Source: Elainellaceae cyanobacterium
GTDB lineage: Bacteria; Cyanobacteriota; Cyanobacteriia; CAZCXK01
Direction: 5' to 3'
DNA: 16,154 nucleotides
Assembly: GCA_051117555.1 (NCBI GenBank)
Contig: JBNPEG010000081.1
Location: 1 to 16,154, forward strand
Position 1 is the first letter of the stretch; each line of letters starts with the position of its first letter. Below, one piece after another: positions 1 to 15,856 of this stretch. A program made the translations under genes and the position numbers. The notes beneath the pieces were generated by a model. That model saw only the letters and a list, made by a program, of their open reading frames with translations, had not been told where the DNA came from and ran no database searches.

Positions 1-117
1 AAGCAGATTGGTCGTCGCGTCAAAATCTCAGGTGCTCAGTGGAATGAAAACAACGTTCCACAAGTCCTGGCTCATCGTTGCGCTTACCTCAATGGCATGA
101 TTGGGGCGCAAAAGTGA
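1..117 (+). CDS. C-terminal end of an ISKra4-family transposase (partial; runs off the left edge)
   Basis: Frame 1 reads KQIGRRVKISGAQWNENNVPQVLAHRCAYLNGMIGAQK-stop. This matches the characteristic C-terminus of cyanobacterial ISKra4-type transposases. It is not in the ORF track. Confidence 0.85.
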   Translation, partial: KQIGRRVKISGAQWNENNVPQVLAHRCAYLNGMIGAQK

Positions 118-126
118 CATGCTCCC
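1..126 (+). mobile_element. Right end of an ISKra4-like insertion sequence; candidate terminal inverted repeat at 108-126 (GCAAAAGTGACATGCTCCC)
   Basis: The transposase stop lies inside a terminal sequence ending in CCC (GGGAGCATGTCACTTTTGC on the minus strand), as expected for this family. The NACHT gene sequence begins directly after it. The other end is outside the window. Confidence 0.75.
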
Positions 127-1053
127 AACTACATGTCCCTGATCAACACCAGTCCACACAGCAAATCGGTTGGCAAAGGTTGTAACAGCGGCAATTCGAG
201 CTGCCACAATCAAGCGTTGATCACTATCTAAGCTGCCTACACGGCTTGAAGCATGACGGCTTTCATTCACTTCTTCACAGAGAAGCTTACATCCCTCAAG
301 ATAAAGTTCATGAAGTCTCTGATCTAGAGGGAATTGCCCACTATGACGGCGGTATGTGTTCAGCAAAAATCCTAGCGTGATTGGTTTGATTGCTAGGGGG
401 ACAGCATCCTTCTGATCAATTTCCTTCAGGAAATTATCAGGAGAAAAGTTGTCAACTTCTGCGGCTTCGACGACATCGATACGCCGAAGCGGAGCTAACT
501 CATAAACTCTAAAACAATCTTCTTTCCAAAGCTCCTTCAGTCCTTCTTCCAGGATTGCTGGAAATACGAATGTCCGACACGCTAGACGCAGATGAAGACG
601 ATTAATATGATTCTGATATTTTGGCTTCTTAAGCTCATCAATTAAACCTGTCGCTAGAGTTGGAATGCTCAAAAGACCTTCATCAAGGCTATCCAGAAAC
701 AGATAAAGATGATGACTATTCCCTAACCAATCAGTAAAAGTTTCATCCCTAAACAGATCTTCTTTTAGATTGGTACAAGATCGGAGATTCAGTTCTAAGA
801 CTTGACTGGCTTCGCAGATTTCCTTTTCCGTAAAGTCTTTTAGCTTTTCCAATTCACGAGACTTCCCGATGCCTGGTTCCCCTAGCAAGACTAGACATGG
901 AACATCAGCGATCGCCTCTAAACTCACTAAATCTGGGTTATATGCCTTCCCCCATTCCCCATCTGGATCACACAGATAACCACCACAAGCCAGATTAATA
1001 TTACCTGACCGAGGGCACCAAAATCGTTTCCAGTCATAGTCCTTTTTCGGCAT
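127..1053 (-). pseudogene. 5' part of a NACHT/STAND P-loop NTPase gene, interrupted by the IS
   Basis: Walker A LLGEPGIGKS, Walker B LYLFLDSLDE and a downstream RLACRT motif are present. The last ~32 codons of ORF 28..1053 (GSMSLLRPNH...) are read-through into the antisense strand of the IS. Confidence 0.8.
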
Positions 1054-1551
1054 ATTGAACAGCGATGAGGGCAGAACTCCTTCTCAAGGATAACTTCCTC
1101 CAAAGGGTTTAATGCCCTTACCCCACTGCCTCAAAAGATAGGTTGGCTAAGTTATCCACAAGGCATACATCTCAACAGATTGTCTTCAAGGAAGTCCCAA
1201 CCGACAGCTTGAGCAGACTAAACTACATGTAGACAGTTGCTTCTATCTAATCCCCCTGCCTACATGTCCAAAATGGCAATTCGTGCATTCTGGCTATCTC
1301 CTGATAAGAGAGGAGTTAGACAGAGCCCTAGCTAGGTCTGCATCAAAAATTAGCTCCATCGCTTCAGTAAATCTTCACATAGAAGACGGAATTATCTCGT
1401 GCGCGCCCTTTTCATCGCAAATACGCACACCCCGTCATCAGCCATCGTGCGATCGCCAAGATTCCAAAACTGCTTAATTAGTGCTCAGAGATGCTTAATT
1501 ACTGTTCTGAACGGTAATTTTGGTGTTCTGAGTGATAAATTAGCAGGTCTT

Positions 1552-1619
1552 AGATCCCCGGCGTCTAACTAAAGCTCTTCGATTATCCCCGACCCGGTCG
1601 ATTGATAAGCCGGGGATCT
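1552..1619. repeat. Small palindromic dispersed repeat (AGATCCCCG...CGGGGATCT type)
   Basis: Perfect 11-bp inverted repeat AGATCCCCGGC (1552-1562) / GCCGGGGATCT (1609-1619), resembling a common cyanobacterial intergenic repeat. Confidence 0.6.
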
Positions 1620-1645
1620 GCCCCCAAAGAAATTCATTAATACGG

Positions 1646-1884
1646 TTGTTTTTACCAACAACGTGCGGTATTCTCGGCTATCAAGCGCTCAAACATGAGC
1701 AGCGTCCCCCAGCAGTGGTAGCAACACTTGCCGGGAGACTAACCCCCGAACTCTGAATCAGCAGAATCGGAGGCTATGGATTGTTTTACCACACTCCTGT
1801 AGCCATCCCAATTCGCGATGCCTTATAGCGGGGTGGCTTCTCGTTTGAGCGCTCCTTACAACTACCCAAAAGGAGTGTTTCATC
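1646..1884 (+). promoter_or_regulatory. Putative promoter and structured 5' leader of the 78-aa gene, containing an 8-codon mini-ORF (1776-1802)
   Basis: TTGTTT(1646)-17 bp-TATTCT(1669). Imperfect hairpin at 1703-1739. GGAGG followed by ATG GAT TGT TTT ACC ACA CTC CTG TAG. ACACTCCT (1791-1798) is complementary to the downstream SD region AGGAGTGT (1871-1878). 1684-1694 pairs perfectly with 1843-1853. Confidence 0.55.
1700..1776 (-). ncRNA. Candidate cis-antisense RNA (SymR/Sok-like arrangement)
   Basis: A minus-strand promoter-like pair TTGGGA (1811-1806)-17 bp-TAAAAC (1788-1783) would start transcription at about the mini-ORF ATG. The RNA would end in the 1703-1739 hairpin. The -10 is imperfect and there is no clear U-tail, so this is inference only. 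Confidence 0.35.
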
Positions 1885-2121
1885 ATGGTAAATCCCAACG
1901 AACCGCCTGAGCGGTTTGACCCATCCTCATGCAATAACGACGACCGAGAAGTACTGCGCGTGATTGCCGTCGGTTCGCTCAAAGCAGTAAACCACCACAT
2001 CATGCAGATGTATCAACTCGGTTATGCTCAGCCTTACGAATGGTCAAAACCCATTCCCACCGTGAATCCTAACGAAGTGATGCAAATTCTCACGAAACGC
2101 ATCATGGGCTTGAGCGATTAA
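1885..2121 (+). CDS. Small conserved cyanobacterial hypothetical protein (78 aa)
   Basis: Good SD (AAGGAG). The pattern RE.LR.I..GS...V...I......GYA...EWS...PT.NP.EVM.IL is one I recognise from a multicopy cyanobacterial hypothetical family. Confidence 0.75.
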   Translation: MVNPNEPPERFDPSSCNNDDREVLRVIAVGSLKAVNHHIMQMYQLGYAQPYEWSKPIPTVNPNEVMQILTKRIMGLSD

Positions 2122-2151
2122 TCCAAGGCAGTGACGCCGAATGTCAAAGGT

Positions 2152-2195
2152 GCGATCGCCCGTGCCCTGAGAATCTCAGCGGGAGGGGCGATCGC
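2152..2195. terminator. HIP1-closed stem-loop between convergent genes (possible bidirectional terminator)
   Basis: GCGATCGCCC (2152-2161) / GGGCGATCGC (2186-2195) encloses CTGAG-AAT-CTCAG. It lies between the stops at 2121 and 2207. No U-tail. Confidence 0.4.
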
Positions 2196-2206
2196 CTAAC
2201 GCCCCC

Positions 2207-3490
2207 TTAACGAACATTGGCAATGCTATCTACAGTTGGGAGAGAAATCGAAAGATGTCCCAACTTTTCAGCCTTCGTTGATAAATAGCGAGCATTAAAC
2301 GAATTGATATCCGTCACCAACGGAATTCGATCAACCACATTGAGCCCAAACCCCCTCAAGCCCGAAATTTTACGAGGATTATTGGTAATCAGTCGAATAT
2401 TGCGAACACCAATATCATTCAGAATTTGCGCGCCGATCCCATAATTTCGCAAATCAGGCTTAAATCCAAGTTTCTCATTCGCTTCAACCGTGTCAAATCC
2501 CTTATCCTGCAATGAATAGGCTTTGAGCTTATTCACCAACCCAATGCCTCGACCCTCCTGTCGGAGATACACCACGACACCGTGTCCTTCCTGTTCGATC
2601 ATTCGTAATGATGTATGAAGTTGTGCTCGACAATCACATCGCAGAGAACCAAGGATATCCCCGGTCAAACATTCAGAATGCACGCGCACCATCAACGTCC
2701 GGTCATGGAAGGTAGCAGGATCACCTTTGACAATTGCAATATGCTCTGAATGGTCAAGCACATTGCGATACGCATAGACATCAAACTGACCAAATTCGGT
2801 CGGCAGACTCGTTGAAGCTTCACGGTAAACCAGTCTTTCCTGGTGTAAGCGATAGTTGATCAAATCTGCAATGCTAATCATCTTCAACTGGTGAGTTCGC
2901 GAATACTCAACGAGATTGGGCAACCGTGCCATCGAGCCATCAAGATTCTGGATTTCGCAAATTAGCCCCGCTGGATATAATCCTGTAAATCGCATCAAAT
3001 CAACAGCGGCTTCAGTATGTCCGGCTCTGACTAAAACTCCACCTTTCTTTGCACGCAGCGGAAAGACATGCCCCGGACGACACAAATCATCCGGTTGAGT
3101 CGCGGGGTTAATACAGGCTTGAATCGTTAGCGCTCGATCGTTTGCCGAAATTCCTGTCCCGCCACCGAGTTTTTTAGATGCATCAACACTGACTGTAAAT
3201 GCAGTTTCATGGTCATCCGTATTCCGCTGAACCATGTCTTTTAAATTGAGTTCATCGAGGCGAGAACCCTCCATCGCAAGACACAATAACCCACGAGCAT
3301 GAGTCGCCATGAAGTTGATGACTTGAGGCGTGACAAACTGAGCTGCACAGATTAGATCGCCTTCATTTTCTCGATGCTCATCATCTACAACAATCACCAT
3401 TCGTCCAGACCTTAATTCTGCTAATGCATCTGGAATTGAATCAAATAAATGGCGATTAATTGAGACTGGTTCAGTGGTATTAGTCTGCAT
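2207..3490 (-). CDS. ribBA: Bifunctional 3,4-dihydroxy-2-butanone-4-phosphate synthase / GTP cyclohydrolase II
   Basis: DHBP synthase motifs [34 protein letters not shown] and RAGHTEA. GCH II motifs [10 protein letters not shown]...RCDC (Zn ligands), QEGRGIGL and TNNPRK. Start placed at ATG 3490 (track uses TTG 3502). Confidence 0.95.
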
Positions 3491-3602
3491 TCGTGGTTTC
3501 AAAACTAAGATGAATTGATGACCTAATCAAAACTATTAATCGACAGCTTAGCGATGACCACTATGACAAATCGTAATTTTCAATACATATCTAAGGCTGC
3601 GC

Positions 3603-3873
3603 TATTCCATTTTGGAATATATAGGCTTGGACTCGATCAAATTCAGATTTCCAAATTGGAAAAATGCTTGTTCTAGAGCATCAGAGACATGTCAAGCATA
3701 TTTAAATACGACACAAGTATCGGTTTTCCTTAAAAAATCTGCGGATTTTTTGCGTCTTTAGTTCGCAAATTGAATGCTTTCCTTAAGAGCTTTATTCCGA
3801 AAGAGAATAGGTAATTTAGTAAATTTAGCTACGGAATTTAATGTGTTCAGTTGAGATATTCCATAACGTAATA
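3603..3873. promoter_or_regulatory. Four copies of a palindromic operator, consensus TATTCC-N5-GGAATA (T-N11-A core)
   Basis: TATTCCATTTTGGAATA 3603-3619 (perfect arms); ATTTCCAAATTGGAAAA 3647-3663; TATTCCGAAAGAGAATA 3793-3809; TATTCCATAACGTAATA 3857-3873. Confidence 0.6.
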
Positions 3874-3889
3874 GCTGAATAAATGTTAC

Positions 3890-3930
3890 GTATATCTGCA
3901 TACAATGTTCAAAGAAATAGCTGATAATGT
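3890..3930 (+). promoter_or_regulatory. NtcA-type activated promoter upstream of the symporter cluster
   Basis: GTA-TATCTGCA-TAC(A) at 3890-3903, a 21-nt spacer, then TAATGT (TAN3T) at 3925-3930 preceded by TGn. A second GTA-N8-TAC lies at 3819-3832. Confidence 0.65.
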
Positions 3931-3993
3931 TTACTCTCAAATCACCCAATAAAACAGTTTGTCACTTTCTTTTATTAGATTTGGGAGTAAAGA

Positions 3994-5466
3994 ATGGCAG
4001 GTATTGAGTTAGTTGCAAATCCTTCTTTGGCTCCAAGCCAAGGGATAGCAATGTTATTTTTGCTTGGATTAATATCATTAGGAGTCGCCTTTTATGTAAA
4101 ATCCAAGCTTGTTAAAAACACCCATGATTTCATCATTGCAGGACGTAAGTTAGGGTTTGGATTTGGTGTCGCCGGGTTAATTTCAGTCTGGACATGGGCG
4201 ATGGCAGTGATGATGTCGGCTGCGATGGCATATAACTTCGGATTGTCAGGATTGTGGTGGTTTACAGTCCCAAACGGGCTGGCTGTGATTGCCGTGATTC
4301 CATTTGCCAAACAGCTTAGAGAGAAGATGCCGCATGGCTATACCATGGGTGAATTTGTAAGCTCACGCTTTGATGGCGCAAAGCTGGCACGCATCGTAGT
4401 GACGGTAGGTTTAATTTTCGGTTCTCTGATTGAAATCATCATTAATTTGAAAGGTACGTCGCTGGTGATTTCTACAGTATTTGGGATGAACCCGACGACC
4501 GTTGCCGTCATTGCGATCGCCATTGTATTGATTTACAGCATGCTGGGTGGACTGTGGGCATCGATGTCTACGTCAACGTTGACAACGTTGTTTATCACAG
4601 TTCCTGCCTCAATTGTGATTATTTCAGTGTTACAGCATCTCGGCGGCGCTGCGCCTATTTGGGAAGAAGTGTCCGCACGAGGTAGTGAACTATTATCCGT
4701 CACACGCGCAGATGTTCCAGCCGCATTCGGAATCACCCTAGCGCTGGGATTGTTGACAGCAACCTTGGCAGGTCAATCTTTCTGGCAAGTCGTTTGGGGG
4801 CTCAAGCCTAAAGAAGTAGGACGGACATTTCTCTGGGCAGGGTCGTGGTTCTACCCAATCCCAATTTGCTTGGGGATTTTAGGACTCATTGGAATCGCGT
4901 TGAATGTGGATCTGGCAACCGATCTTGGTAATGATGCTGCCGCAGTTGGACCCTTTGTAATTTCTCATATTGGCTTACCCAACTGGTTAATCTATTCCTA
5001 TGTGTTTGTGATCCTTTCGGCCTGTTATTCAACCATGGATGGCGCACTGGCGTCGCTCAGCTCTATTGCGGCTGTGGATGTGATTAAACCTGTTTCACCC
5101 CAGGTTCAAGACCGCACTCTATTTGGTTTAACCCGGATTTCGATGCTGGTTGCAGCCGCAATTGCACTGATCGTGGTGCTATCGGGGATAGACTTCGTCA
5201 CGATTGTATTGACGACCTATGCCATTCGCACCGCAATCTTAGTGCCGTTGATGCTCGCAATCTTCTGGCCCAAGATGACAGCAAATGGATTTGTATGGGG
5301 AACGATTGCGGCGATCGCCATTGGCATGCCATTGCGGATGGTCTTTGGTGAATTAATCGGAACGCTTGCCATCTTAGGAATTAGTGCCGTGGTGCCCATT
5401 GCTCTCAGCTTTTCTAATACGCGTCCGTTTGATTACGACTCCCTCAAGCGAGTTGAAGATATCTAG
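3994..5466 (+). CDS. Sodium:solute symporter (SSS) family transporter, DUR3-like
   Basis: About 13 hydrophobic segments. SSS motifs DFIIAGR, YSMLGGLWAS and SACYSTMDG. SVWTWA...AYNFGLSGLWW resembles the WTWA segment of DUR3 urea/amine transporters. SD GGGAG. Confidence 0.85.
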   Translation: MAGIELVANPSLAPSQGIAMLFLLGLISLGVAFYVKSKLVKNTHDFIIAGRKLGFGFGVAGLISVWTWAMAVMMSAAMAYNFGLSGLWWFTVPNGLAVIAVIPFAKQLREKMPHGYTMGEFVSSRFDGAKLARIVVTVGLIFGSLIEIIINLKGTSLVISTVFGMNPTTVAVIAIAIVLIYSMLGGLWASMSTSTLTTLFITVPASIVIISVLQHLGGAAPIWEEVSARGSELLSVTRADVPAAFGITLALGLLTATLAGQSFWQVVWGLKPKEVGRTFLWAGSWFYPIPICLGILGLIGIALNVDLATDLGNDAAAVGPFVISHIGLPNWLIYSYVFVILSACYSTMDGALASLSSIAAVDVIKPVSPQVQDRTLFGLTRISMLVAAAIALIVVLSGIDFVTIVLTTYAIRTAILVPLMLAIFWPKMTANGFVWGTIAAIAIGMPLRMVFGELIGTLAILGISAVVPIALSFSNTRPFDYDSLKRVEDI

Positions 5467-5473
5467 CCGTGAT

Positions 5474-5508
5474 GAACTACTGACTTTGGGCGATCGCGGC
5501 AGTAGTTC
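5474..5508 (+). other. Intergenic stem-loop around a HIP1 site
   Basis: Perfect 9-bp inverted repeat GAACTACTG / CAGTAGTTC just after the symporter stop. No U-tail, so possibly an mRNA stability or processing element. Confidence 0.45.
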
Positions 5509-5568
5509 GGAATAGGGCGCATCATAAGACGCATTATCAATCTACGTCACCCTACAAAGAGGTCAACT

Positions 5569-6075
5569 ATGAAGACTCCAGCACATAATCATTCCTTGAA
5601 CGACTTCATTAAGCAAAGCAAATACTTCATCGTCGGTGCGTTAGCCACGGTAATAACACTCGCCATTCACGCCAAAGCTAATGCGGCATCTCCTGCAACG
5701 CTTGGGGGCTTCATTTCACCCATCACGATTATTTTTCTCATCGTCGGGATTGCAGTGTGTGTGTTCTATATCAAAGCAATGCTGACCATATTACATGAAG
5801 CCGCCGATTCGTACACCGAAGTGGAAGATGATACAGACGGTTCCTACTATGCTGCACCTGCATGGGGCGCGGCGTTAGCGGGAGTTATTGCTGCGATCGT
5901 AATCTGGTCGTATGGCGTAAATCCTTCATTTTTCTATTTAGGACCTGTGCTGTCAATGCTCAGCCCGATTGCAATTCTGTACTGCATGCTGCAAGACATC
6001 AAAAACTTTAAGTTGGCTCATATGGAAATGAGAGATAAGGACAATAAAGCGATTTCTGAACTGATTGAACACTAA
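5569..6075 (+). CDS. Hypothetical membrane protein (168 aa)
   Basis: SD AGAGG. Signal-peptide-like N-terminus ending AKANAA, then about three hydrophobic helices with an acidic loop (EVEDDTDG). Co-oriented with the cluster. Confidence 0.75.
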   Translation: MKTPAHNHSLNDFIKQSKYFIVGALATVITLAIHAKANAASPATLGGFISPITIIFLIVGIAVCVFYIKAMLTILHEAADSYTEVEDDTDGSYYAAPAWGAALAGVIAAIVIWSYGVNPSFFYLGPVLSMLSPIAILYCMLQDIKNFKLAHMEMRDKDNKAISELIEH

Positions 6076-6112
6076 CTAAAACTGAAAAACCGTGGGGATT
6101 ATCAGAACATAT

Positions 6113-6205
6113 GGGCGAACGGCTGTGCGCCAAGGCAGGCTACGCCAACGCCCCAACCCTTGGCATATCGCAAAGCTGTTCGCCCCCCGATCAACCCTTG
6201 GCATA
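6113..6205. repeat. Composite REP/SDR-like palindromic element
   Basis: GGGCGAACGGCT (6113-6124) pairs with AGCTGTTCGCCC (6174-6185); inner GCCAAGG/CCTTGGC. Contains AGGCTACGCCAACG. 14-bp direct repeat CAACCCTTGGCATA at 6154 and 6192. Confidence 0.55.
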
Positions 6206-6263
6206 CTGTGACATTATCTTCTCCCAGACTCAATCAACTACTGTTCGGCTACTGTTCGACTTG

Positions 6264-8291
6264 ATGAAACTCGAAGACATCACGCTAAACCATATCAAGA
6301 TCCTAAAGACTGTCAATGATTGCCAGAGCTTTTCAAAGGCTGCTAAGAAATTGGGATACAGTCAAGCTTTAATCAGCAAGAAGGTGAAGCAACTAGAAGA
6401 CTATTTTGGAACCCGCTTACTCACTCGTTCGCCAGGCTTGGTGTGCCTTACGAACAAGGGTAAAAAACTAGTTGCAAAGACCTATGGAATTTTTGATGGC
6501 ATGGAGAACTTACAGCAAGAATTCCAGGCATCATTTAATGGAGTTGGTGAAGAGATTGTTGTTGGCATCACACCCCTGCTGTCAGAAGCATGGTTTGAGA
6601 AATATACCCATCGGTTTAGTATGTGCTTTCCCGGAAAGGAAATCAGGAAGGAGGTTACGTTATCCAACGATTTTTTGTCGTCAGGATCACCGTCTCCCAA
6701 TCTTCTGATTAATAATTCGTCTGCCTATCGCGAGAGCCATCCCTGCAATCGATTGCAAACCTATCGTATGCTTTTGATTGATTTTAATGCAGACACTGAA
6801 CATCACAAAACGGGCACAGTTAGCGTAAAAGATATTGATTTTAGCAATGTTTTTATCTTAGAAGAAGTCTACCGAGACCTATCGCGAAACCGATTTATCG
6901 ACAAGGTGAATTTGAGCCGCGCTTCGACGTTTGTTAGCTACACAGACGTCATTGAATCTGCGATCGCACATCAAAAATCAACGATTCTTCCTGAATGCTG
7001 TTTGATTGATCTCAAAAAATATAAGCACGTTTGCTACTCCACAGTCCGAGATACTAATGAATACGGAATTTATATTCATGTGCCACTACATAGCGAATTG
7101 CTCGTGCTTGCAGAAGGGCTCGTAAGAAGTTTTCGGCTAGAGCAAGATATTTTGGAAGAGAGCTATACACCTAGCTTTCAAGTAGGTGATTCTTCAACCA
7201 ATGAAATTGGAACATTAAGACTCGGAATACAGCGAGATTCTATTGGTCAACTTATCGCGGGACACGGAGTCAAATACATCTCTGAAATTCTCCGATCATC
7301 TTCCTTGGATTATACAAGCTTTAAAGACCTTGAAATTAGTCGAGAGTTTGAATTACAAATCAGCCTGTTTTCATCTGGAGAATTGATGAATCGACAAATG
7401 AAAAAGGGTGAATTAGATATCTGTATTATGGATGATGTTTCTCTCTTGAATAATGGATCATTATTTTTTGATGATCTCAGTTTTGGGTCAAAATTAATTG
7501 GCATCGCATCCTATAATATTTTGGGCCAAGACATTAGCGTTGTGTTGCCAAATGTCTCTCACATTACATCAGTTCAAGAATTGAAAGGGAAGCGAATTTC
7601 GACACCGTTTGGATCTAATTCTCATCGATTTATTATCAACTTACTTAATTTATGCGGTATTAATAGTAATGTGGACTGTACTTTGATTGATGAAGATCCT
7701 CGGACAGCAAGCAATAGCTTAGCCAACGGAAGTATTGATGCTCATATCTGTTGTGAAACCTTTGCCACTCTTTTGGAAGAATACAACTATTCCAAACGGC
7801 TGTATCAGGCTCAGGATTTCAACATTCGTCTTCCCTCTCTACGAGGAATCGTGTGTCGATCGCAATTTATTCGAGATAATCCTAAGTATGTAATCGCCTA
7901 TCTCCACAATTTGGCGATCGCCAACCATTGGTTCCTGACGAATCCGGTCGATGCTGCGCATACATTAAGCCAGTTGATCAATGTCAATTCCGCACAAGTC
8001 TTGAAATTTTTCTCATCAAACTTTGGCACTCGGATCGATCCCACCTTAAAACCCCAATGGTCATGGCTACTCAAAACATTAAACCGACGATTGGAAGGAA
8101 ATTATGGCATCTCAAAGTTCGATGTTGACTTTTGGATTGATGACTATTTTCTTCGGCTGACCTACAACCTGCTCGGGCTCGATTATCACTTTCAACAGGT
8201 GTCGTTTTCGAGTGAGTTATCAAACAGCTATTTCGTTGATGAGCAGTTTAGCAAGTATATGGAAGTATTAAACATGCAGCTAGTGTCTTGA
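6264..8291 (+). CDS. LysR-family transcriptional regulator fused to a C-terminal SsuA/TauA/NrtA-like (NMT1/THI5-type) solute-binding domain (675 aa)
   Basis: N-terminal LysR HTH (SFSKAAKKLGYSQALISKKVKQLEDYFGTRLLTRS...LTNKGK). The C-terminal half has SBP motifs LRLGIQ, FSSG...MKKGELDI, ITSVQELKGKRISTPFGSNSH, LANGSIDA and FIRDNP. Start placed at ATG 6264 because the track's upstream extension runs through a repeat element. Confidence 0.85.
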   Translation: MKLEDITLNHIKILKTVNDCQSFSKAAKKLGYSQALISKKVKQLEDYFGTRLLTRSPGLVCLTNKGKKLVAKTYGIFDGMENLQQEFQASFNGVGEEIVVGITPLLSEAWFEKYTHRFSMCFPGKEIRKEVTLSNDFLSSGSPSPNLLINNSSAYRESHPCNRLQTYRMLLIDFNADTEHHKTGTVSVKDIDFSNVFILEEVYRDLSRNRFIDKVNLSRASTFVSYTDVIESAIAHQKSTILPECCLIDLKKYKHVCYSTVRDTNEYGIYIHVPLHSELLVLAEGLVRSFRLEQDILEESYTPSFQVGDSSTNEIGTLRLGIQRDSIGQLIAGHGVKYISEILRSSSLDYTSFKDLEISREFELQISLFSSGELMNRQMKKGELDICIMDDVSLLNNGSLFFDDLSFGSKLIGIASYNILGQDISVVLPNVSHITSVQELKGKRISTPFGSNSHRFIINLLNLCGINSNVDCTLIDEDPRTASNSLANGSIDAHICCETFATLLEEYNYSKRLYQAQDFNIRLPSLRGIVCRSQFIRDNPKYVIAYLHNLAIANHWFLTNPVDAAHTLSQLINVNSAQVLKFFSSNFGTRIDPTLKPQWSWLLKTLNRRLEGNYGISKFDVDFWIDDYFLRLTYNLLGLDYHFQQVSFSSELSNSYFVDEQFSKYMEVLNMQLVS

Positions 8292-8357
8292 GCTTTAGTT
8301 TGACTCAATCACGATAGTTCGCGCCGTTTATTGGTGATAGTTAAGGAGAATAGGTTA

Positions 8358-8906
8358 ATGCATGATATTGTGGCGATCGCTGGCAGCCCTTCTAGTTCTT
8401 CTAGGTCTTCAGCAGTATTAGAGTATGCAAACCATATTTTGATCAATCAAGGATTAAAAGTTGAGTCGATTACCGTTCGCAGTATTCCGCCTGAAGATTT
8501 AGTGTTTGGCAACTTTGAAAGCCCTGCATTGAAAGAGGTAAGTCAGCTCATCGAAAACGCCAAGGGCATTGTGATTGCAACTCCGGTCTATAAAGCATCG
8601 TACACAGGAGTACTGAAAGCAATGCTAGACTTGCTGTCCCAATATGCATTTGCAGGCAAAACTATTCTGCCGATTGCAACAGGAGGAACCATTACCCACC
8701 TCCTATCGATTGACTATGCTATGAAGCCCCTCTTTTCTACATTGGGAGCAACGAATATCCTACGGGGCGTCTTTATCGTTGACTCTCAGATGCAGCGTAC
8801 TGATGAAGGCGGCATCGTGCTTGATGACGATGTTGACCTCCGATTAAAAGAGTCACTCATTGAGCTATCTAGCATTTTGCAGCAAACCCGCCTAGCCGTT
8901 GGTTAG
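8358..8906 (+). CDS. ssuE: NAD(P)H-dependent FMN reductase
   Basis: IAGSPSSSSRS, ATPVYKASYTGVLKAMLDLL, LPIATGG...HLLSIDYAMKP. SD AAGGAG precedes ATG 8358. Confidence 0.92.
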   Translation: MHDIVAIAGSPSSSSRSSAVLEYANHILINQGLKVESITVRSIPPEDLVFGNFESPALKEVSQLIENAKGIVIATPVYKASYTGVLKAMLDLLSQYAFAGKTILPIATGGTITHLLSIDYAMKPLFSTLGATNILRGVFIVDSQMQRTDEGGIVLDDDVDLRLKESLIELSSILQQTRLAVG

Positions 8907-8924
8907 CTCCCAAAGAGCAGTCTC

Positions 8925-9027
8925 ATACCAATTCTTCGAAGTAAGGCTACAAATGAACAGGCTAGAACCCTTGCAAGGCTGGTGGCCGTCAATCCAAAAT
9001 CGCAAATCCAAAATCGAGAATTGGTAT
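8925..9027. mobile_element. MITE-like 103-bp element with an internal short tandem repeat
   Basis: Perfect 11-bp terminal inverted repeats ATACCAATTCT / AGAATTGGTAT. Internal AATCCAAAATCG occurs twice (STRR-like). Confidence 0.6.
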
Positions 9028-9071
9028 CACACCCCATCAATTTAGTTTTTGAAATACGAGGAAATAGCGAT

Positions 9072-10394
9072 ATGTCAGCTAAAAAGAAAGCACATCTTCT
9101 CGGCTTCCTTCAGCATGGAGTGAACAGTCACGCAACCGGAATGTGGCGGCATCCTAAAGATAAGGTTAACTGGGACTGGAGCAGTCCAGCTTACTGGCAG
9201 CATATGGCACGCACCATGGAACGCGGGCTTTTTGATGCCATGTTTATCGCTGACGAGCTTGCTCCGTACAATAACTTCGAGCAAAGCTCGGATGCCTGTG
9301 TGAAATGGGCGGTTCAATGTCCCACGCATGAACCATCCACCATCGTTCCTATCATTACAACTGCCACCAAGCATCTCGGTGTGGGTGTGACCTTATCGAC
9401 GGCGTTCGAACATCCCTATTCAATGGTGCGGCGACTTTCAAGTCTCGACCATCTTTCCGGGGGGCGCGTGGCTTGGAATATTGTCAGTTCTTACTCCAAA
9501 AGTGAATGGGATGCGTATGGAGCCGAAATGACCGATCGCTCGAAACGATATGAGCGAATGGAGGAGTACATGGAGATTTGCTATCAGCTCTGGGATTCAT
9601 GGGAACCCGATGCCATCATTGCGGACAAGGAAAGCGGAATCTTTGCTGATCCAGCGAAAGTCCATGAGGTAGATTTTAAGGGTGAGTTTTTTACTTGCAA
9701 AGGGCGATCGTTTTGCTTTCGTTCTCCTCAGGGCAAACCCGTCTTCTGGCAAGCCGGATCATCAAATCGAGGACGCGATTTTGCTGCAAAACATGCCGAA
9801 GCTATCTTCGCTGTCCATCCGACAGTCGAACGCATGCGCCAGTATTCAGATGACTTGAACACCCGATTGGAGAAAACGTTTAACCGCTCTCGTGGCAGTG
9901 TGAAGCTTATTTATGGATTGCAGTGCATTGTTGGTGAATCCAGAGACCATGCCCAGGAAAAATACGAGCAAATTCGCGACTGTATTCCTTTAGAGGGTGC
10001 ATTAGCGTGGATATCTGGGCATTTTGGACCAGACTTTTCGACGTATGACTTGAATGAGTATGTTCAAAATATCGAAATTCCTGGCATTCAAGGACTGTTT
10101 GAAAGCATCATTTATGCAAAAGGTGGAGAGCCTCTAACGGTTAAAGAGGCTGCACTCTACTATGCTATGGGAATGGGGATGCCCATTACAGTAGGCACAC
10201 CTGCCGATATTGCTGACAAGATGGAATACTACATGGATGAAGGGGGAGCAGATGGGTTTATGCTTGTCGCAACCTATACGCCTGGATGCTTTGAAGAATT
10301 TGTAGATATGGTGGTTCCTGAACTCCAACGCCGAGGACGCTTCCGGACAGAATATACCGGACAAACTCTGCGGGAGAATCTTCTAGCGTATTAA
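9072..10394 (+). CDS. FMNH2-dependent monooxygenase, NtaA/DszA/DmoA/SnaA family (luciferase-like class)
   Basis: GMWRHP, ERGLFDAMFIAD, HPYSMVRRLSSLDHLSGGRVAWNIVSS, LWDSWEPDA, SPQGKPVFWQAGSSNRGRDFAAKHAEAIF, VVPELQRRGRFRTEYTGQTLRENL. SD GAGG precedes ATG 9072. Confidence 0.93.
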   Translation: MSAKKKAHLLGFLQHGVNSHATGMWRHPKDKVNWDWSSPAYWQHMARTMERGLFDAMFIADELAPYNNFEQSSDACVKWAVQCPTHEPSTIVPIITTATKHLGVGVTLSTAFEHPYSMVRRLSSLDHLSGGRVAWNIVSSYSKSEWDAYGAEMTDRSKRYERMEEYMEICYQLWDSWEPDAIIADKESGIFADPAKVHEVDFKGEFFTCKGRSFCFRSPQGKPVFWQAGSSNRGRDFAAKHAEAIFAVHPTVERMRQYSDDLNTRLEKTFNRSRGSVKLIYGLQCIVGESRDHAQEKYEQIRDCIPLEGALAWISGHFGPDFSTYDLNEYVQNIEIPGIQGLFESIIYAKGGEPLTVKEAALYYAMGMGMPITVGTPADIADKMEYYMDEGGADGFMLVATYTPGCFEEFVDMVVPELQRRGRFRTEYTGQTLRENLLAY

Positions 10395-10408
10395 ACATGC
10401 TTCGGTCA

Positions 10409-11596
10409 TTATGTTCTGACAGCTTCCTTAAACCGAATCTTGAGATAGTCATCTTCAATCTTGGCTCCAGCGGGTTGCAGAGCAGCCAATGCTTGCGGCA
10501 ACACTAAGTTACGGCGATGATTGCCGATACGAATATTCAGCTCATCGCCAGACTTGCTGAGATCAATTTTGTCTTTTGGGATTCCAGGCAGATAGACCTC
10601 TAAGCTGTATTCATTTTGCTCTTGGGTCACCCGCATGGTTGTTTCTTTGTAATAGACCTGAGTCGGGTCTTCGTCTGCGTAGAGGGTTTCTTTAAGCCTC
10701 TCTAACGCAGCCAATCCGCACATTTCTTCCGAATAAAGCGGTACTTCTTTTACCGGAAGCGGACGGAAATTTTCGTGGATTTCGTGGCGATATTGCTGCT
10801 GATTTTCTTTCCACCGTTGAAAGAAAGGATCGGTGACCGAATCAGGGATAATGCGGTTAGCTACAACTAAATCGGTGCCAACGTTATAAAGGCTGAGGTA
10901 GGCATGGGCCCGCAACGACTCTTTGATGACCATCTTTTCAGGATTCGTCACCAAGCGAACGGACGTTTTTGCGTTATCCGTGAGCACTTTCTCTAGTTCT
11001 TCAATCTGCTGATAGAACTCGTAGGGCGCATCCATGACTTCTTGGTTGGGAAGCGAGAAGCCAGCAATGGGTCGAAAGATCGGCTCGACAAGGGGGCGCA
11101 GCGCTACCGAAACAGCTTGCAACGGCTTGTAGAAGCGGCGCATATACCAGCCTGCCACTTCAGGGAGGCTGAGCAGCCTCAATGCAGTCCCCGTAGGAGC
11201 CGAATCAATGATTAGGACATCAAACTCGCCTTCATCATAGTGACGTTTCATGCGAACAAGGCTGAAGATTTCGTCCATGCCGGGTAAGATAGCAAGCTCT
11301 TCTGCTTCAACGCCTTCTAACCCTCGTGCTTGAAGCACTTGAGTAATGTAGCGCTTCACGGCTCCCCAATTGCCTTCGAGTTCCATAAGCGCGTCAAGCT
11401 CTGCTCCCCATAGATTTGGGCGGACTTGCTTAGGCGTATGCTCTAGCTCCATGTCAAAGCTGTCTGCCAAGGAATGGGCAGGGTCAGTACTGAGTACTAA
11501 GGTTTTATGTCCTAATTCCGCACAGCGTAACCCTGTCGCAGCCGCAACTGAGGTTTTGCCAACTCCACCCTTTCCGGTCATCAGAATTACGCGCAT
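10409..11596 (-). CDS. TRC40/Get3/ArsA-family ATPase with a C-terminal HSP20-like domain (cyanobacterial Get3d type)
   Basis: [34 protein letters not shown]-terminal alpha-crystallin-like segment LEVYLPG...[17 protein letters not shown]. Confidence 0.93.
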
Positions 11597-11640
11597 GGAT
11601 CGTCAAGCCTTCCTGAGAATGTGTTCATGCCTACTCATTA

Positions 11641-12033
11641 TTATGACGACTTCTGAGGAAACACGTGTTGTTTTATGACGTCGAGGCGAGAACAATGCCA
11701 ATAGTCGATATGGGAGATAATTAATCCGTCGTCGTTAAGTTTGAGTTCGCTCCAGCCATCGATTGCAATGCGAGGCTTCCAGGGTAACGGCGTTGTCCAG
11801 CTTAGCGTCCAGTCGGTGCGGATGTCGTTTCCAGAACGCTGAATCTGATGCAAATCAAGTTGAGGATCAGAGAACCACTGATCGATGAATTGCAGCATTT
11901 CTCGGTAGCGATCGCACCCGTGAAATTCGTTGAGCGGGTCTTTGAAATAAACATCCTCAGCATAGATATCGTAATGCTGGTCTTTGGGAAATGTTTGGTA
12001 ATCGTTTTTAAGAATGTCGAGGATATCGGGCAT
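11641..12033 (-). CDS. DUF2358 / SnoaL-like protein
   Basis: YDIYAEDVYFKDPLNEF.G...Y, TPLPWKPRI...GWSEL and IISHIDYW motifs. Confidence 0.85.
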   Translation of the reverse strand: MPDILDILKNDYQTFPKDQHYDIYAEDVYFKDPLNEFHGCDRYREMLQFIDQWFSDPQLDLHQIQRSGNDIRTDWTLSWTTPLPWKPRIAIDGWSELKLNDDGLIISHIDYWHCSRLDVIKQHVFPQKSS

Positions 12034-12084
12034 GGCAGATATTGGGCAACATTGGACGGGGCTTAAATAAGAATGGATGGTCTA

Positions 12085-12113
12085 CAGGGCGTTTTATATC
12101 AGGGCGTTTTATA
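12085..12113. repeat. Short tandem duplication CAGGGCGTTTTATA x2
   Basis: Copies at 12085-12098 and 12100-12113. Confidence 0.7.
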
Positions 12114-12126
12114 CCAGAGTGACACA

Positions 12127-12687
12127 TTACCCCTCATTCCAAAGTCGCTGAAGCTGATGGCGCCAAGCGTTTAATACAGCATCGCGTTGCTCGGCAGGCT
12201 GGTCTACATTGCCCATGACGCCTTCTCGATAAAACCGATCGAGGGTTTGCATGGTGTCTTCAAGCGACTGCCCTCGCTGCTTGGCAGCTTGAATGATTTG
12301 CAGAATTTGAGTTTCGGCAAGCTGATTAAAGACGTCAGATAATCCTTTTTGCTGAAGGGAAATGAGACGGGCGATCGCCCGCTTAAAGTCGCTACTGGTC
12401 AGGCTTTCGCGGTCGTGCTGAAAGACTCCCCATAAGATGCCCTGAGAGAGGGCGTATCGAGTTTCTTGAGTCTTATCAAAATTGGCTTCTAGCAGTTGAG
12501 GCAAAAAGGATTCTGCCTCAATTTGAGGGGCGATCGTGATCAGAACTCGCATCCACGATAAATCTTCGGACAGCAACACGAGTATGCGAGAATTACCTTG
12601 CTCCACCTGCCACGAATCAGGCTCCATGACTTGCACATTCTCTGCAAACATGTCTCTAAGGGTTTGGGTGATGTCATCTAGCGTCAT
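12127..12687 (-). CDS. Conserved cyanobacterial hypothetical protein, type III secretion chaperone/YbjN-like fold
   Basis: LLEANFD.TQETRYAL...LWGVFQH and TLDRFY.EG.MG motifs; 186 aa; co-oriented with the DUF2358 and Get3 genes. Confidence 0.75.
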   Translation of the reverse strand: MTLDDITQTLRDMFAENVQVMEPDSWQVEQGNSRILVLLSEDLSWMRVLITIAPQIEAESFLPQLLEANFDKTQETRYALSQGILWGVFQHDRESLTSSDFKRAIARLISLQQKGLSDVFNQLAETQILQIIQAAKQRGQSLEDTMQTLDRFYREGVMGNVDQPAEQRDAVLNAWRHQLQRLWNEG

Positions 12688-12749
12688 CAGGCGGTTTAAG
12701 ACTCAGCAGAGTTATTGTATCGCTCATGCCAATGTATATACGCTCTATA

Positions 12750-12836
12750 TACGCTCTCGCGTTAGGACGTTGAACGGTGTGGTGAACCCTCGCGGCGCGG
12801 GGGCTCACCACACAAACCTAAGCCCGTAGGGCTGTA
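12750..12836 (+). repeat. Dispersed palindromic repeat (MITE-like family), copy A
   Basis: TACGCTCTCGCGTTAGGACGTTGAAC...TGTGGTGAACCCTCGCGGCGCGGGGGCTCACCACA...GTAGGGCTGTA. Similar to 12922-13005 and 15666-15750. Confidence 0.7.
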
Positions 12837-12921
12837 TCCATGCGATTTAATCCATGCGATTTACCACGACTCGACGCTCTGCTGCACAATGTAGCTAGAA
12901 CCCATAAACTTTGACGGAGCC

Positions 12922-13005
12922 TACGCGATCGCGCTAGGACGTCGAACCTGTGTAGAACTACCAGGACGTGGGGGCTACACAAAAATCAAAATCTGTACGG
13001 CTGTA
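12922..13005 (+). repeat. Dispersed palindromic repeat (MITE-like family), copy B (more diverged)
   Basis: TACGCGATCGCGCTAGGACGTCGAAC matches the start of copy A at 22/26. Inner TGTGTAG/CTACACA. Ends GTACGGCTGTA. Confidence 0.6.
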
Positions 13006-13032
13006 CTTGGGCGTTGTCCAAACTGGTGTGTT

Positions 13033-14433
13033 ATGTCGATCGTCATTGCTGACTATAAAGATCTTTTAGCTGATTTCATTTCCAAATATCGTTCGCGCGT
13101 TGATTTTCTTGCCATTCGCCTCGAAGAATCAGAAGGTACTGATATTCTCCTACGGGGTGAGCGCATTGAAACGCTCAGTGAAGGCATTTCGGTCGGTGGG
13201 CAAGTCCGCGCATGTCATCGAGGCGGATGGGGCTTTGCTAGTTTTAACCAGTTATCGAGTTTGTCAGATCGGATTGAAGAGGCGATCGCCGCGGCTCGAT
13301 TGGTGGGTCAAGAAGAAACGCTTCTGGCTCCCGTTGACCCAGTCCACGATATTCGAAATTTGCCTTTAACCGGAACCGATCCTCGGCGGATTCCCCTCGT
13401 TCGAAAGAAAGACTTATGCAGTCAATATGCCGAAATCTTGCGAAGCGTCGATTCTCGCATCGCAACAACGTCGGTTCGCTATGGCGACAGTGCCCAGCGC
13501 ATCATTCTAGCAACGTCGGACGGCACCGTTTTAGAGCAAGCGTGGGTCGATATGGAAATGCGCTTTGCCGCAACCGCCCGCAATGGCGAAACCGTCCAAA
13601 CAGGACGCGAAACAACTGGCTCTCGAAAAGCCTATGAAGACTTGAATCATCTAGATACCCAAGTTCAACAGGCGGCTCAACGCGCGGTCGAAGCGCTGGC
13701 GCTACCTCCCGTTAAGGGCAACACCTATACCGTCGTGATTGATCCCATTCTCACAGGCTTATTTGTTCATGAGGCATTTGGGCATCTTTCTGAAGCCGAT
13801 ATGGCCTATGAAAATCCCGATTTGCTTGAGGTGATGACGATTGGACGACGCTTTGGCCCCAAAAACTTGCAAATCTTTGATGGAGCAGTTCCAGAAGGGC
13901 ATCGAGGTAGCTACTATTACGACGACGAGGGCGTGCCTGCGACCACAACTCAGCTCATCAAAGACGGTGTGCTGGTCGGGCGGCTGCATTCTCGTGAGAC
14001 GGCGGGCAAACTGGGAGAGGCTCCTACGGGGAATGCACGCTGTTTGAGCTATCACTATCCTCCGATTGTGCGCATGACAAATACTTGGATTGAACGCGGC
14101 GAAACCCCTGTCGCTGACTTGCTTAAAGATATTAAAGAAGGCGTGTATGCCCGCAACTGGCTCGGCGGCATGACCAACGGAGAAATGTTTACCTTTGCAG
14201 CAGGCGAGGCGTGGATGATTCGCAATGGGGAGATTGCTGAACCGGTGCGAGATGTCACCTTGTCGGGCAATGTCTTTACGACCCTGGCTGATATTGAAGC
14301 GGTCGGCGATGATTTCTTTTGGGACGAATCAGGCGGATGTGGCAAAGGGGGGCAAAGCGGGCTTGCTGTTGGCTGTGGCGGGCCAAGCTTGAGAATTCGC
14401 AACGTAGTGGTTGGGGGTGAAGCCGCAGAGTAG
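13033..14433 (+). CDS. tldD: TldD/PmbA-family metalloprotease, catalytic TldD subunit
   Basis: HEAFGH (HExxGH) motif, DDEG, TGNAR, VRMTNT and C-terminal CGKGGQ. Confidence 0.93.
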   Translation: MSIVIADYKDLLADFISKYRSRVDFLAIRLEESEGTDILLRGERIETLSEGISVGGQVRACHRGGWGFASFNQLSSLSDRIEEAIAAARLVGQEETLLAPVDPVHDIRNLPLTGTDPRRIPLVRKKDLCSQYAEILRSVDSRIATTSVRYGDSAQRIILATSDGTVLEQAWVDMEMRFAATARNGETVQTGRETTGSRKAYEDLNHLDTQVQQAAQRAVEALALPPVKGNTYTVVIDPILTGLFVHEAFGHLSEADMAYENPDLLEVMTIGRRFGPKNLQIFDGAVPEGHRGSYYYDDEGVPATTTQLIKDGVLVGRLHSRETAGKLGEAPTGNARCLSYHYPPIVRMTNTWIERGETPVADLLKDIKEGVYARNWLGGMTNGEMFTFAAGEAWMIRNGEIAEPVRDVTLSGNVFTTLADIEAVGDDFFWDESGGCGKGGQSGLAVGCGGPSLRIRNVVVGGEAAE

Positions 14434-14623
14434 TGCCGCAGAGTCGTGCAATAGTAATCCCAAATGATTTGTAGAAATCTCCAGCGTGTTTTGTCCGTAG
14501 CGATGCATCGCATTAGCGTCTCGCTTCTCCTGGTGGAGAGGCGTTGCCAACGCGGGCAAGATGCCCCCACTCCCATGTCATAAATGACTTAGAATTGCTA
14601 AATCTGGCCGCTCCTTGGATTAG

Positions 14624-15490
14624 CTAAATTGTTCCTCTAAAAAGACCTTGGGGGCGCACTAGCAGCACCAAGACCATCATTAATAAAGCCACTGCGATCT
14701 TATACTCGGTGGGCAGGAAGTAGGTGCTGGTTTCTTGCACAATGCCAATGATAAAGGCTCCGGCGATCGCCCCATAGGGGTTGCCGATTCCGCCCAAAAT
14801 CACCGATGCAAACATAGGCAAGATCAAAAACCATCCCATATTAGGGCGCACGGCAGTAATCAACCCATACATTCCGCCTCCGAGGGCAGTCAACCCGGCG
14901 GCAATAATCCACGTCCAAATCACAACCTGCTCAACGTTAATGCCTGCCACTCGTGCAAGATCGATATTGTCAGCGACTGCCCGCATGGCTTTGCCGATCT
15001 TGGTGTATTGCAACAAGATATGCAAACCGACAATGGCAAGCACTGCCAAAATCACGACGATAATTCGGTAGTAGGCAATTTTGATACCTGCAATATCGAT
15101 CGCGCTCGCAACCGGGAGGGCATAGGTTTGATTGCCCCCTCCCCAAATCAAAACAATGCCATTGCGAATAAATAGCGCTAGCCCAATCGAGATAATAATC
15201 AAAGTGGTCGAGGAGGCGCGGCGATCGCGCATTACTGACCAAACTAGCTTTTCACTTAGGAGGGCTAGGGCGATAGTAATTGCTGCGCCAATCACCATGG
15301 ACAACCAAATATTGACCCCGCTGATATTGATGACAAATGTCATATATGCGCCCAAGGTTAAAAAGTCTCCGTGGGCAAAATTGGCAAGGCGCAGAATACC
15401 ATAGGTGAGCGTCAGACCGACGGATGCCAGGGCGATGATGCTGCCTAGAGCAATCCCATTAACCAAGAATTGAATCAGTTGTGAATCCAT
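14624..15490 (-). CDS. natD: Branched-chain/neutral amino acid ABC transporter permease (LivH/NatD type)
   Basis: NGIALGSIIALASVGLTLTYGILRLANFAHGD, TKIGKAMRAVADN..LA...GI, FASVILGGIGNPYGA and RPQGLF. Start placed at ATG 15490. Confidence 0.88.
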   Translation of the reverse strand: MDSQLIQFLVNGIALGSIIALASVGLTLTYGILRLANFAHGDFLTLGAYMTFVINISGVNIWLSMVIGAAITIALALLSEKLVWSVMRDRRASSTTLIIISIGLALFIRNGIVLIWGGGNQTYALPVASAIDIAGIKIAYYRIIVVILAVLAIVGLHILLQYTKIGKAMRAVADNIDLARVAGINVEQVVIWTWIIAAGLTALGGGMYGLITAVRPNMGWFLILPMFASVILGGIGNPYGAIAGAFIIGIVQETSTYFLPTEYKIAVALLMMVLVLLVRPQGLFRGTI

Positions 15491-15594
15491 TTGGGTAAAT
15501 TCAGGTAATTGAGGATTAAAACCAGAGTGTAGACCGTAGCGATTATTGTCTAGCAATGGAGTGAGTTTGCAAAGTTCAATCTGTACGGTTTGGC

Positions 15595-15626
15595 TTGACT
15601 CTCCAGTAGACTGGATTATTTAAATT
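15595..15626 (+). promoter_or_regulatory. MerR/CueR-type promoter-operator
   Basis: -35 TTGACT (15595-15600), dyad TCCAGT-AG-ACTGGA (15602-15615) inside an elongated 19-20 bp spacer, -10 TTAAAT/TAAATT. It points toward the heavy-metal-associated (HMA) domain gene. Confidence 0.7.
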
Positions 15627-15665
15627 AATCATGCCTAAGGAGTATGGATTAAATAATCTAGAGAA

Positions 15666-15779: not shown

Positions 15780-15856
15780 TCCTGCTGCCGGACGCGGGGA
15801 GGTTATTAAATCTACGTTCCCAAGGAATTTTTTTTTGATCTCAGGAGATTTTAGTA

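Follow-up and report, generated by a model that had tools for sequence, protein, structure and literature searches.

The window analysed here is a 16,154 nucleotide (nt) stretch of DNA from an Elainellaceae cyanobacterium (assembly GCA_051117555.1, contig JBNPEG010000081.1, positions 1 to 16,154 of the forward strand). It contains a small gene for a 78 amino acid (aa) protein, and this gene is preceded by a leader that contains a five-helix RNA domain of ~170 nt. The domain is phylogenetically conserved in structure, is situated directly before the open reading frame (ORF), and carries two segments complementary to the ribosome-binding site (RBS) of that frame; both the RNA and the protein are under selection. 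The leader probably acts in cis as a translational switch, similar to a riboswitch or responsive to a protein, and would thereby control the access of ribosomes to the gene. Switching itself is proposed from alternative base pairings present in the sequence. The helices and the gene are located as follows (positions are those of the window).

1684–1853, + strand: structured leader core, a five-helix domain of ~170 nt (RNAalifold consensus and pair counts)
1684–1694/1843–1853, + strand: helix P1, long-range, closes the domain
1704–1717/1725–1739, + strand: helix P2
1743–1748/1768–1773, + strand: helix P3, with inner hairpin P3a at 1753–1755/1762–1764
1775–1779/1797–1801, + strand: helix P4
1802–1809/1830–1837, + strand: helix P5
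1885–2121, + strand: gene for the 78 aa soluble protein, of an uncharacterised cyanobacterial family

The structure was derived by comparison of homologous leaders. Fifty distinct leaders were collected from four related genomes and three more distant ones, and RNAalifold finds P1, P2, P3 and P5 in these. The model was completed by hand to P1, P2, P3 with P3a, P4 and P5, a total of 43 pairs. In the 50-leader alignment, which is based on MAFFT, 93.3% of cells are paired vs 33–43% when the partners are slid by 1–3 columns, and 18 pairs show two-sided changes. A covariance model termed R1 was built from this alignment. With 78 leaders from several families, 92.8% of cells are paired vs 36–48% with slid partners, two-sided changes are present at 34 of the 43 pairs, and the observed pairing score is attained by none of 500 shuffles; these 78 leaders were aligned by fitting to R1, which biases the alignment towards the structure, and the MAFFT-based counts from 50 leaders are free of that bias.

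Helix P1 begins ~3 nt from the predicted 5' end of the transcript and stops ~30 nt ahead of the start codon. It consists of AGCGCTCAAAC (1684–1694), which is the perfect 11 nt complement of GTTTGAGCGCT (1843–1853). Taken alone this inverted repeat is unremarkable. There are five non-palindromic inverted repeats with an exact 11 nt seed within 250 nt in the 16-kb window, P1 among them, and three of the five, P1 included, are 100% complementary over 11–12 nt. P1 is considered real because two-sided changes occur at 9 of its 11 pairs across the 78 leaders. The original prediction, made from the window sequence alone, had proposed this pairing and had named covariation in homologous leaders as a way to check it; the pairing is conserved, and the check comes out in its favour.

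The fold of the window leader has a z-score of -4.16, and its minimum-energy structure is the P1 fold. In close copies R1 gives ~170–185 bits on the forward strand and 21–26 bits on the reverse, which shows that the RNA is read on the sense strand. Rfam 15, searched at E ≤ 1 with both strands of the whole window, yields no family match.

Selection on the RNA is apparent from three near-identical copies of the unit. With the P2 loop and the inside of P3 set apart, a single difference is seen among the 146 positions of the RNA core, vs 12 among the 79 third codon positions of the gene; the RNA core thus changes far less than third codon positions do. Four of 7 positions vary in the P2 loop, and 10 of 31 in the segment from P1 to the ATG. 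In a set of 13 leaders that are at least 88% identical, the entropy is 1.11 bits per column in the P2 terminal loop (1718–1724), 0.66 bits in the P3 interior (1745–1764) and 0.07 bits in the other 166 columns. The variation of the P2 loop and P3 interior is consistent with unconstrained loops in a strongly constrained RNA. A faster than neutral rate of change in the P2 loop was considered (4 of 7 vs 15% of third positions) and set aside, as the sites are too few to indicate more than a lack of constraint.

The RBS of the gene is complementary to two separate elements of the leader, each of which resembles an anti-Shine-Dalgarno (anti-SD) sequence.

1870–1878, + strand: Shine-Dalgarno (SD) region AAGGAGTGT, 6 nt ahead of the ATG, read from the sequence
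1791–1798, + strand: internal anti-SD ACACTCCT, in the P4 internal loop and 3' strand, a perfect complement of 1871–1878
1849–1857, + strand: second anti-SD GCGCTCCTT, shares 5 nt with the end of the P1 3' strand, pairs with 1870–1878

An SD-like motif is found 4–12 nt ahead of the chosen start codon in 71 of 78 leaders. The P4 element ACACTCCT mimics the 3' end of 16S rRNA and pairs perfectly with AGGAGTGT (1871–1878). The longest Watson-Crick match between the P4 3' half and the RBS averages 6.6 nt for cognate and 5.4 nt for non-cognate partners (53 distinct combinations of leader and RBS). Matches of at least 7 nt are present in 23 of the 53 leaders vs 18% of non-cognate pairs, and none of 5000 permutations attains the cognate mean. 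For 25 leaders from other families the mean is 5.92 vs 3.89 (standard deviation 0.18) with shuffled RBS windows. Both partners change together across lineages, i.e., there are independent compensating variants GCTCCT/AGGAGC, TCACTCCAC/GTGGAGTGA, TCCTGTGGT/ACCACAGGA and TTACTCCTGTT/AACAGGAGTAA, and further matched variants in other lineages (CACTCCAA/TTGGAGTG, GCACTCCACT/AGTGGAGTGC and ACTCCTGTTTT/AAAACAGGAGT). What had been noted at the outset as an additional anti-SD is therefore retained here as a conserved, covarying partner of the RBS.

The element that follows P1 offers a different pairing. GCGCTCCTT and AAGGAGTGT can form an alternative hairpin of 9 pairs, two of which are G-U. When each fold is enforced, the P1 fold has -75.4 kcal/mol and the post-P1 anti-SD hairpin -72.0 kcal/mol, a gap of 3.4 kcal/mol. 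The earlier claim that this segment pairs alternatively with the SD region holds, and in this copy the overlap of the anti-SD with P1 supports the two folds being mutually exclusive. With G-U pairs allowed, the post-P1 anti-SD/RBS match averages 7.5 nt vs 4.74 nt in shuffled windows; it is at least 7 nt in 29 of 52 leaders vs 4.2 expected. The element overlaps P1 by at least 3 nt in 43 of 52 leaders. In the more distant set the Watson-Crick mean is 4.8 vs 4.0. The P1 3' strand can also match a downstream mimic of the P1 5' strand; this third complementarity is only 4 nt in this copy, is strong in some leaders and reaches at least 6 nt in 16 of 52.

A side observation concerns the segment between P1 and the RBS. 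In 12 of 71 leaders, all from three related genomes, it carries an insertion of ~100 nt or more with the ORF intact (e.g., L029:1156–1270, L030, L048, L050 and L063). The insertion opens with tandem AAGGCRG-type heptamers. One of these leaders, L030, has a type-1 P4 anti-SD joined to a type-2 RBS.

The proposed mechanism is as follows. The mRNA would start ~3 nt ahead of P1 and would fold into the five-helix domain. The RBS could then be captured by either of the internal anti-SD elements, in P4 or after P1. The pairs that would compete are P1 vs the post-P1 anti-SD hairpin, and the P4 stem vs the P4 anti-SD/RBS helix, with the folded or unfolded state of the domain deciding between them. Translation would be switched by a trigger that makes the domain more stable or opens it; candidate triggers are a small ligand, the encoded protein or a paralogue, and a physical cue such as temperature. 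An alternative pairing with the RBS, as in an expression platform, is present, and a terminator scan of the window finds no terminator-like site between leader and ORF. A constitutive structural 5' untranslated region (UTR), which would serve mRNA stability or a fixed low level of translation with no switching, agrees with the P1 fold being the minimum-energy fold. This is judged unlikely, as there are two separate conserved anti-SD elements, the alternative folds are near-isoenergetic, and the RBS covaries with a P4 3' half that is itself partly engaged in P4. Together these three properties supply what a switch needs and go beyond what stability would require.

The start of the transcript is predicted from a putative promoter.

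1646–1674, + strand: putative promoter, -35 TTGTTT (1646–1651), 17 nt spacer, -10 TATTCT (1669–1674), predicted start ~1681

The hexamers match at 7 of 12 positions, and a generic sigma-70 scan does not call them. In an alignment of leaders from promoter to ATG, the -10 sequence TATNCT is unchanged in 15 of 15 copies of this genome, and the -35 sequence GTTGT is at least 90% conserved at a constant spacing of 17 nt while the spacer sequence is variable (14–15 copies). The promoter hexamers are also kept in relatives. Conservation of hexamers at fixed spacing over a variable spacer makes a transcription start near 1681, as suggested by the conserved promoter only, plausible. The sense promoter that had been proposed with this start thus stands as regards its hexamers and their fixed spacing, but it is not one that the generic scan recognises.

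The leader is widespread. Among 151 cyanobacterial genomes from across the class, R1 locates it in 31, which belong to 9 of 34 families and usually hold several copies; the per-genome counts in the sampled genomes are to be read as at least, with the best 17 candidates scored. At 25 of 30 loci from other genomes an ORF of the family is directly downstream (E ≤ 0.001), and at one further locus of the 30 the ORF was found in a separate per-locus search (E 4.6e-7). The distance from the end of P1 to the chosen start codon is 25–59 nt in 59 of 71 leaders. The leader is on the same strand as the ORF and directly before it, which is the placement seen for riboswitches.

Among relatives of the protein, a set of 38 loci (L153–L190), mostly without the leader, was inspected for other features, which lie ~200–560 nt upstream of the family ORF. 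Fifteen have a divergent small ORF of ~77 aa. Three of the 15 were scanned, and all three encode a Cro/C1-type helix-turn-helix (HTH) protein, HTH_26. Four of the 38 loci have an upstream ORF on the same strand; three were scanned, and all are DUF7662 + HTH_3. The presence of a dedicated small regulator in relatives that have no such RNA suggests that the product needs tight control. One part of the family is thus under a dedicated small DNA-binding regulator and another part under the folded leader; this agrees with a product whose level matters, and indicates nothing more specific.

The RNA could also have a job of its own, either as a stable non-coding RNA that is processed from the 5' end or as a type III-like RNA partner or antidote of the protein, with its position reflecting co-expression. 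The large size of the domain, its conservation above that of synonymous sites, the joint occurrence of RNA and ORF as a unit, and the HTH regulator of the RNA-less relatives, which points to a tightly controlled product, would all suit such an RNA. However, there are no tandem repeats of the ToxI type in positions 1400–2300 and PADLOC finds nothing, no terminator-like site separates the RNA from the ORF, and covariation of the RBS with elements of the domain indicates control in cis. An independent function of the RNA is accordingly regarded as improbable.

Several points weigh against a translational switch. The leader has no known ligand or binding partner. A metabolite riboswitch on one small gene family with at least 15 copies per genome would be unusual, and the slight acidity of the 78 aa protein gives no hint of RNA binding. 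The leader accompanies only a part of the protein family: R1 finds it at 11 of 43 more distant named loci and at none of three plasmid-borne homologues, a broader model (R2) finds it at 2 of 52 further loci, which were either missed by R1 or previously unsearched, and leader-less relatives often carry a small HTH gene instead. Transcription from 1681 is predicted from the promoter. In the 12 of 71 leaders with an insertion the distance from P1 to the start codon is 120–146 nt, and the ORF is kept nonetheless. Overlap between the post-P1 anti-SD and P1 ranges from 0 to 7 nt, so that mutual exclusivity of these two elements is not universal. Relatedness is not taken into account in the permutation and shuffle tests, so that they overstate significance; the compensating variants of P4 and RBS, which are independent of one another, are a stronger argument than the permutation statistics.

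A more specific form of the switch is a new riboswitch class of filamentous cyanobacteria, in which the five-helix domain would be the aptamer for a small molecule, an ion or a second messenger. This is a tentative proposal and is doubtful at present. If it were true, each genome would switch its 15 to 27 or more small paralogues on or off in concert, and an uncharacterised protein family of unmatched fold would form an RNA-controlled regulon.

The original prediction had been different, namely a type I toxin-antitoxin-like module similar to hok/mok/sok or symE/SymR, where translation of the gene is coupled to a mini-ORF in the leader and is blocked by a cis antisense RNA.

1776–1802, + strand: 8-codon mini-ORF with GGAGG upstream; judged not to be a gene, coincides with helix P4

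The elements of this model exist in the window copy: the mini-ORF, its GGAGG, the ACACTCCT segment within it, and on the opposite strand a weak promoter-like sequence. In addition the 5' element does pair far downstream, alternative folds do exist, and the unit is solitary and multi-copy like many type I loci. Conservation of these elements is nevertheless poor. Of 78 leaders, 19 have the mini-ORF ATG and 15 encode the peptide MDCFTTLL, all from the closest subgroup. The GGAGG is the 3' strand of P3 (1768–1773), the ATG lies in the 5' strand of P4 (1775–1779) and the stop is at the P4/P5 boundary; these positions covary as helix pairs in P3, P4 and P5. Coupling of translation to the mini-ORF is not supported, given the scarcity of the ATG and the covariation of these positions as P3/P4 base pairs. 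The opposing promoter-like sequence (TTGGGA, 17 nt, TAAAAC on the - strand) lacks the final T of its -10 hexamer, and a generic promoter scan of the window makes no call for an antisense promoter. Only 12 of 78 leaders retain the hexamers at a spacing that could function, and blocking by an antisense RNA is not supported. The proposed antisense start (1776) is situated 100 nt upstream of the RBS. The reverse strand scores 21–26 bits with R1 vs ~170–185 for the forward strand. Similarity to the layout of symE leaders had been seen in a CTAACC motif; in the folded RNA this motif forms the conserved junction between P2 and P3.

The product does not resemble that of either system. Hok-type toxins are ~50 aa hydrophobic proteins with a transmembrane helix. 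The protein encoded here is 78 aa, soluble, and has no 18-residue hydrophobic run and no hydrophobic helix. Pfam finds no SymE or toxin family in it; a search for a SymE/AbrB-like domain gives only MRP-S32 as a sub-threshold chance hit (E 0.045), and fold searches place no AbrB-like chain near the top, which is a weak test by itself. Rfam includes hok/sok models. Neither Rfam nor PADLOC returns a match, and with a soluble beta-alpha-beta-beta product that has no Pfam hit, membership in the hok/sok or symE/SymR groups is not supported. A type I module is an extremely unlikely explanation of the locus.

That the product is soluble and belongs to an uncharacterised cyanobacterial family was also part of the first proposal, and this is borne out. 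The three near-identical copies show 12 coding differences, every one of them at a third codon position, which shows that this is a real gene under purifying selection. An AlphaFold2 model from 35 sequences has a mean predicted local distance difference test (pLDDT) of 84.8. Disorder is confined to 20 residues at the N-terminus, which are followed by a confident core of strand-helix-strand-strand (beta-alpha-beta-beta) fold with a pLDDT above 95. Searches of the protein with Pfam, NCBIfam and PADLOC give nothing above threshold. In a Foldseek search of the PDB the lowest E is 0.29, and MinE, dodecin and ACT-like chains have template modelling (TM) scores of ~0.3–0.45; VIA-align with 48,161 chains has a best Z of 3.8; there is no convincing PDB relative of the core in these searches. 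The resemblance to dodecin was considered, as the gene is beside ribBA, and was dropped as too weak.

A profile search of 1.84 billion representatives gives 818 clusters at E ≤ 0.001, of which 400 are at E ≤ 1e-10. Most family members are 70–125 aa with the domain C-terminal. Matches in the ESM Atlas are only to unnamed cyanobacterial clusters, and where members of the family are named they are labelled hypothetical. Relatives occur in Elainellaceae, Crinalium, Nodosilinea, Halomicronema, Leptolyngbya, Scytolyngbya, Oculatellaceae and others, and there are plasmid-borne relatives of the protein in Nostocales. One unusual member, P0068, is 580 aa and has a TIR_2 domain, WD40 repeats and a C-terminal family domain (residues 518–578). 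It could represent either a genuine fusion or two genes that were merged by the gene caller.

The unit of promoter, ~200 nt leader and 78 aa ORF is present in 16 strong copies in this genome. A tblastn search of the genome with the ORF gives 18 matches, 15 of them full length and three with an identical protein. R1 matches at 19 places; 18 of these precede an ORF of the family, including two weak ones before a distant paralogue, and the 19th is cut by a contig end. In the closest copies the repeated stretch is 1621–2196 (~95% identity). In distant copies DNA similarity spans the promoter to the stop codon, with no terminal repeats. Neighbours of the copies include ribBA (here), ribD, glmS, metK, clpB and many STAND, NACHT, CHAT and caspase genes. 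A fixed partner gene was considered and rejected, since the neighbours differ from copy to copy.

The unit might alternatively be mobile DNA, e.g., an integron gene cassette, with a fold that serves recombination or mobility. There are 16 strong copies at unrelated places, one copy is 115 nt downstream of an integron integrase gene and remnants of an integrase are beside another, and a 133 nt palindromic repeat abuts the stop codon of three copies. These observations are outweighed by others. There is only one intact integrase, and the copies are single and scattered and do not form arrays. Conservation in distant copies runs from promoter to stop codon and includes no terminal repeats, the pattern of covariation is that of a single-stranded RNA from the sense strand, and the palindromic repeat is itself scattered over 29 contigs. 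Mobility as the explanation of the fold is therefore very unlikely, and a switch that acts on translation of the downstream gene is preferred.

The repeats and the integrase near these copies were recorded as separate observations. The intact integron integrase gene (TIGR02249, 466 bits vs a cutoff of 265; L032:1230–2195) is on contig C211 of this genome (G000), on the same strand as the leader-ORF unit, and is the only intact one in the genome. Integrase remnants precede the copy on contig C168 (G000:C168:30224–30451), and the C7 copy shares a flank of ~110 nt. The palindromic dispersed repeat of ~133 nt is represented by 33 matching pieces on the 29 contigs. It begins at the stop codon of three copies of the unit (L032:2741–2890; C236 and C28) and is less than 600 nt from two more (C219 and C71), which is far beyond chance placement. 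It could be a MITE-like (miniature inverted-repeat transposable element) sequence that targets terminators, or an attC-like site.

Two hairpins flank the unit in the window. Just upstream, positions 1552–1619 form a hairpin with perfect 11 nt arms, AGATCCCCGGC/GCCGGGGATCT. Counted by orientation, there are 22 and 20 occurrences of the arm motif in this genome, and related GAAGCCGGGGATCT sequences are ahead of the C219, C28 and C136 copies. This hairpin is probably a small dispersed repeat or an upstream terminator. The other hairpin follows the stop codon.

2148–2197, + strand: GC-rich long hairpin after the stop codon, between the 78 aa gene and the convergent ribBA

The fold of positions 2122–2215 has -40.5 kcal/mol, and the hairpin region is common to only the three near-identical copies. 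The terminator scan makes no call at 2148–2197; a terminator without a U tract is a possible reading of this hairpin. Approximately half of the G000 copies (L021–L038) adjoin genes for STAND-type NTPase, NACHT-GUN4, caspase-GUN4, CHAT-TPR, AIPR or AbiEii-like AAA proteins. This proximity may be due to chance. The window gene at 28–1053 (- strand) has weak P-loop matches only.

A structured leader that hides the RBS is already a well known kind of element. The leader motif and the protein were looked for by full-text literature searching, and no description of either was found. A screen of 202 cyanobacterial genomes was anchored on 931 KEGG gene groups (PMC12873609); given this design, coverage of the 78 aa gene, which has no KEGG term, is unlikely, and its supplements could still list a copy. 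The significance of the leader lies in several properties. Large covarying bacterial RNA domains outside the curated families are now rare finds. This one is widespread and is tied to a protein family of at least 818 clusters that has no Pfam family, name or structural relative. With an RNA of 170 nt, two anti-SD elements and one small gene, it is a directly testable system, and it could reveal a new signal sensed by cyanobacteria or a new protein-RNA feedback loop. The Cro/C1-type regulator in the RNA-less relatives is a lead to the function of the product.

In comparison with known systems, hok/mok/sok (plasmid R1 and chromosomal hok) is similar in its long-range pairing of the 5' end, in folds that gate the RBS and in solitary multi-copy loci. 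The locus described here differs in that a membrane toxin is absent and neither a leader ORF nor an antisense promoter is conserved; its pairing is inside the leader and not from end to end of the mRNA, and there is no Rfam match. SymE/SymR of E. coli shares a small soluble protein and a 5' region for which RNA control has been proposed, but the present protein has no SymE/AbrB-like Pfam match, the comparison of the opposing promoter-like sequence at the mini-ORF across leaders gives no conserved antisense gene, and the CTAACC motif is a junction of the folded RNA.

The glnA RNA (glutamine riboswitch) and Downstream-peptide motifs are cyanobacterial leader motifs of ~60 nt in Rfam. Like the present leader they are found in cyanobacteria before small ORFs whose function is poorly known. 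The leader described here has no match to them at E ≤ 1, and its fold is unrelated and three times larger. The 5' UTR of the cspA family and the leaders of ribosomal-protein genes are autoregulated or sensory leaders of small genes. They resemble this leader in being long conserved 5' UTRs of small proteins (~70–80 aa) with many paralogues, in which structure decides ribosome access, and by analogy the product may feed back on its leader here also. However, the protein is not an OB-fold (oligonucleotide/oligosaccharide-binding) or RRM protein, it has no PDB relative, and it is slightly acidic.

Translational riboswitches such as thiM TPP, SAM-II and preQ1-II hide the SD sequence, and there are orphan riboswitch candidates of this kind. 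Unlike these, the leader described here has no known ligand or Rfam match, has five helices in ~170 nt, precedes a single small gene family with at least 15 copies per genome, and contains two alternative anti-SD elements. The features in common are the lack of a terminator, a covarying domain at the 5' end of the mRNA that is closed by P1, a P1 3' strand that is shared with an anti-SD, and an RBS that pairs with the domain.

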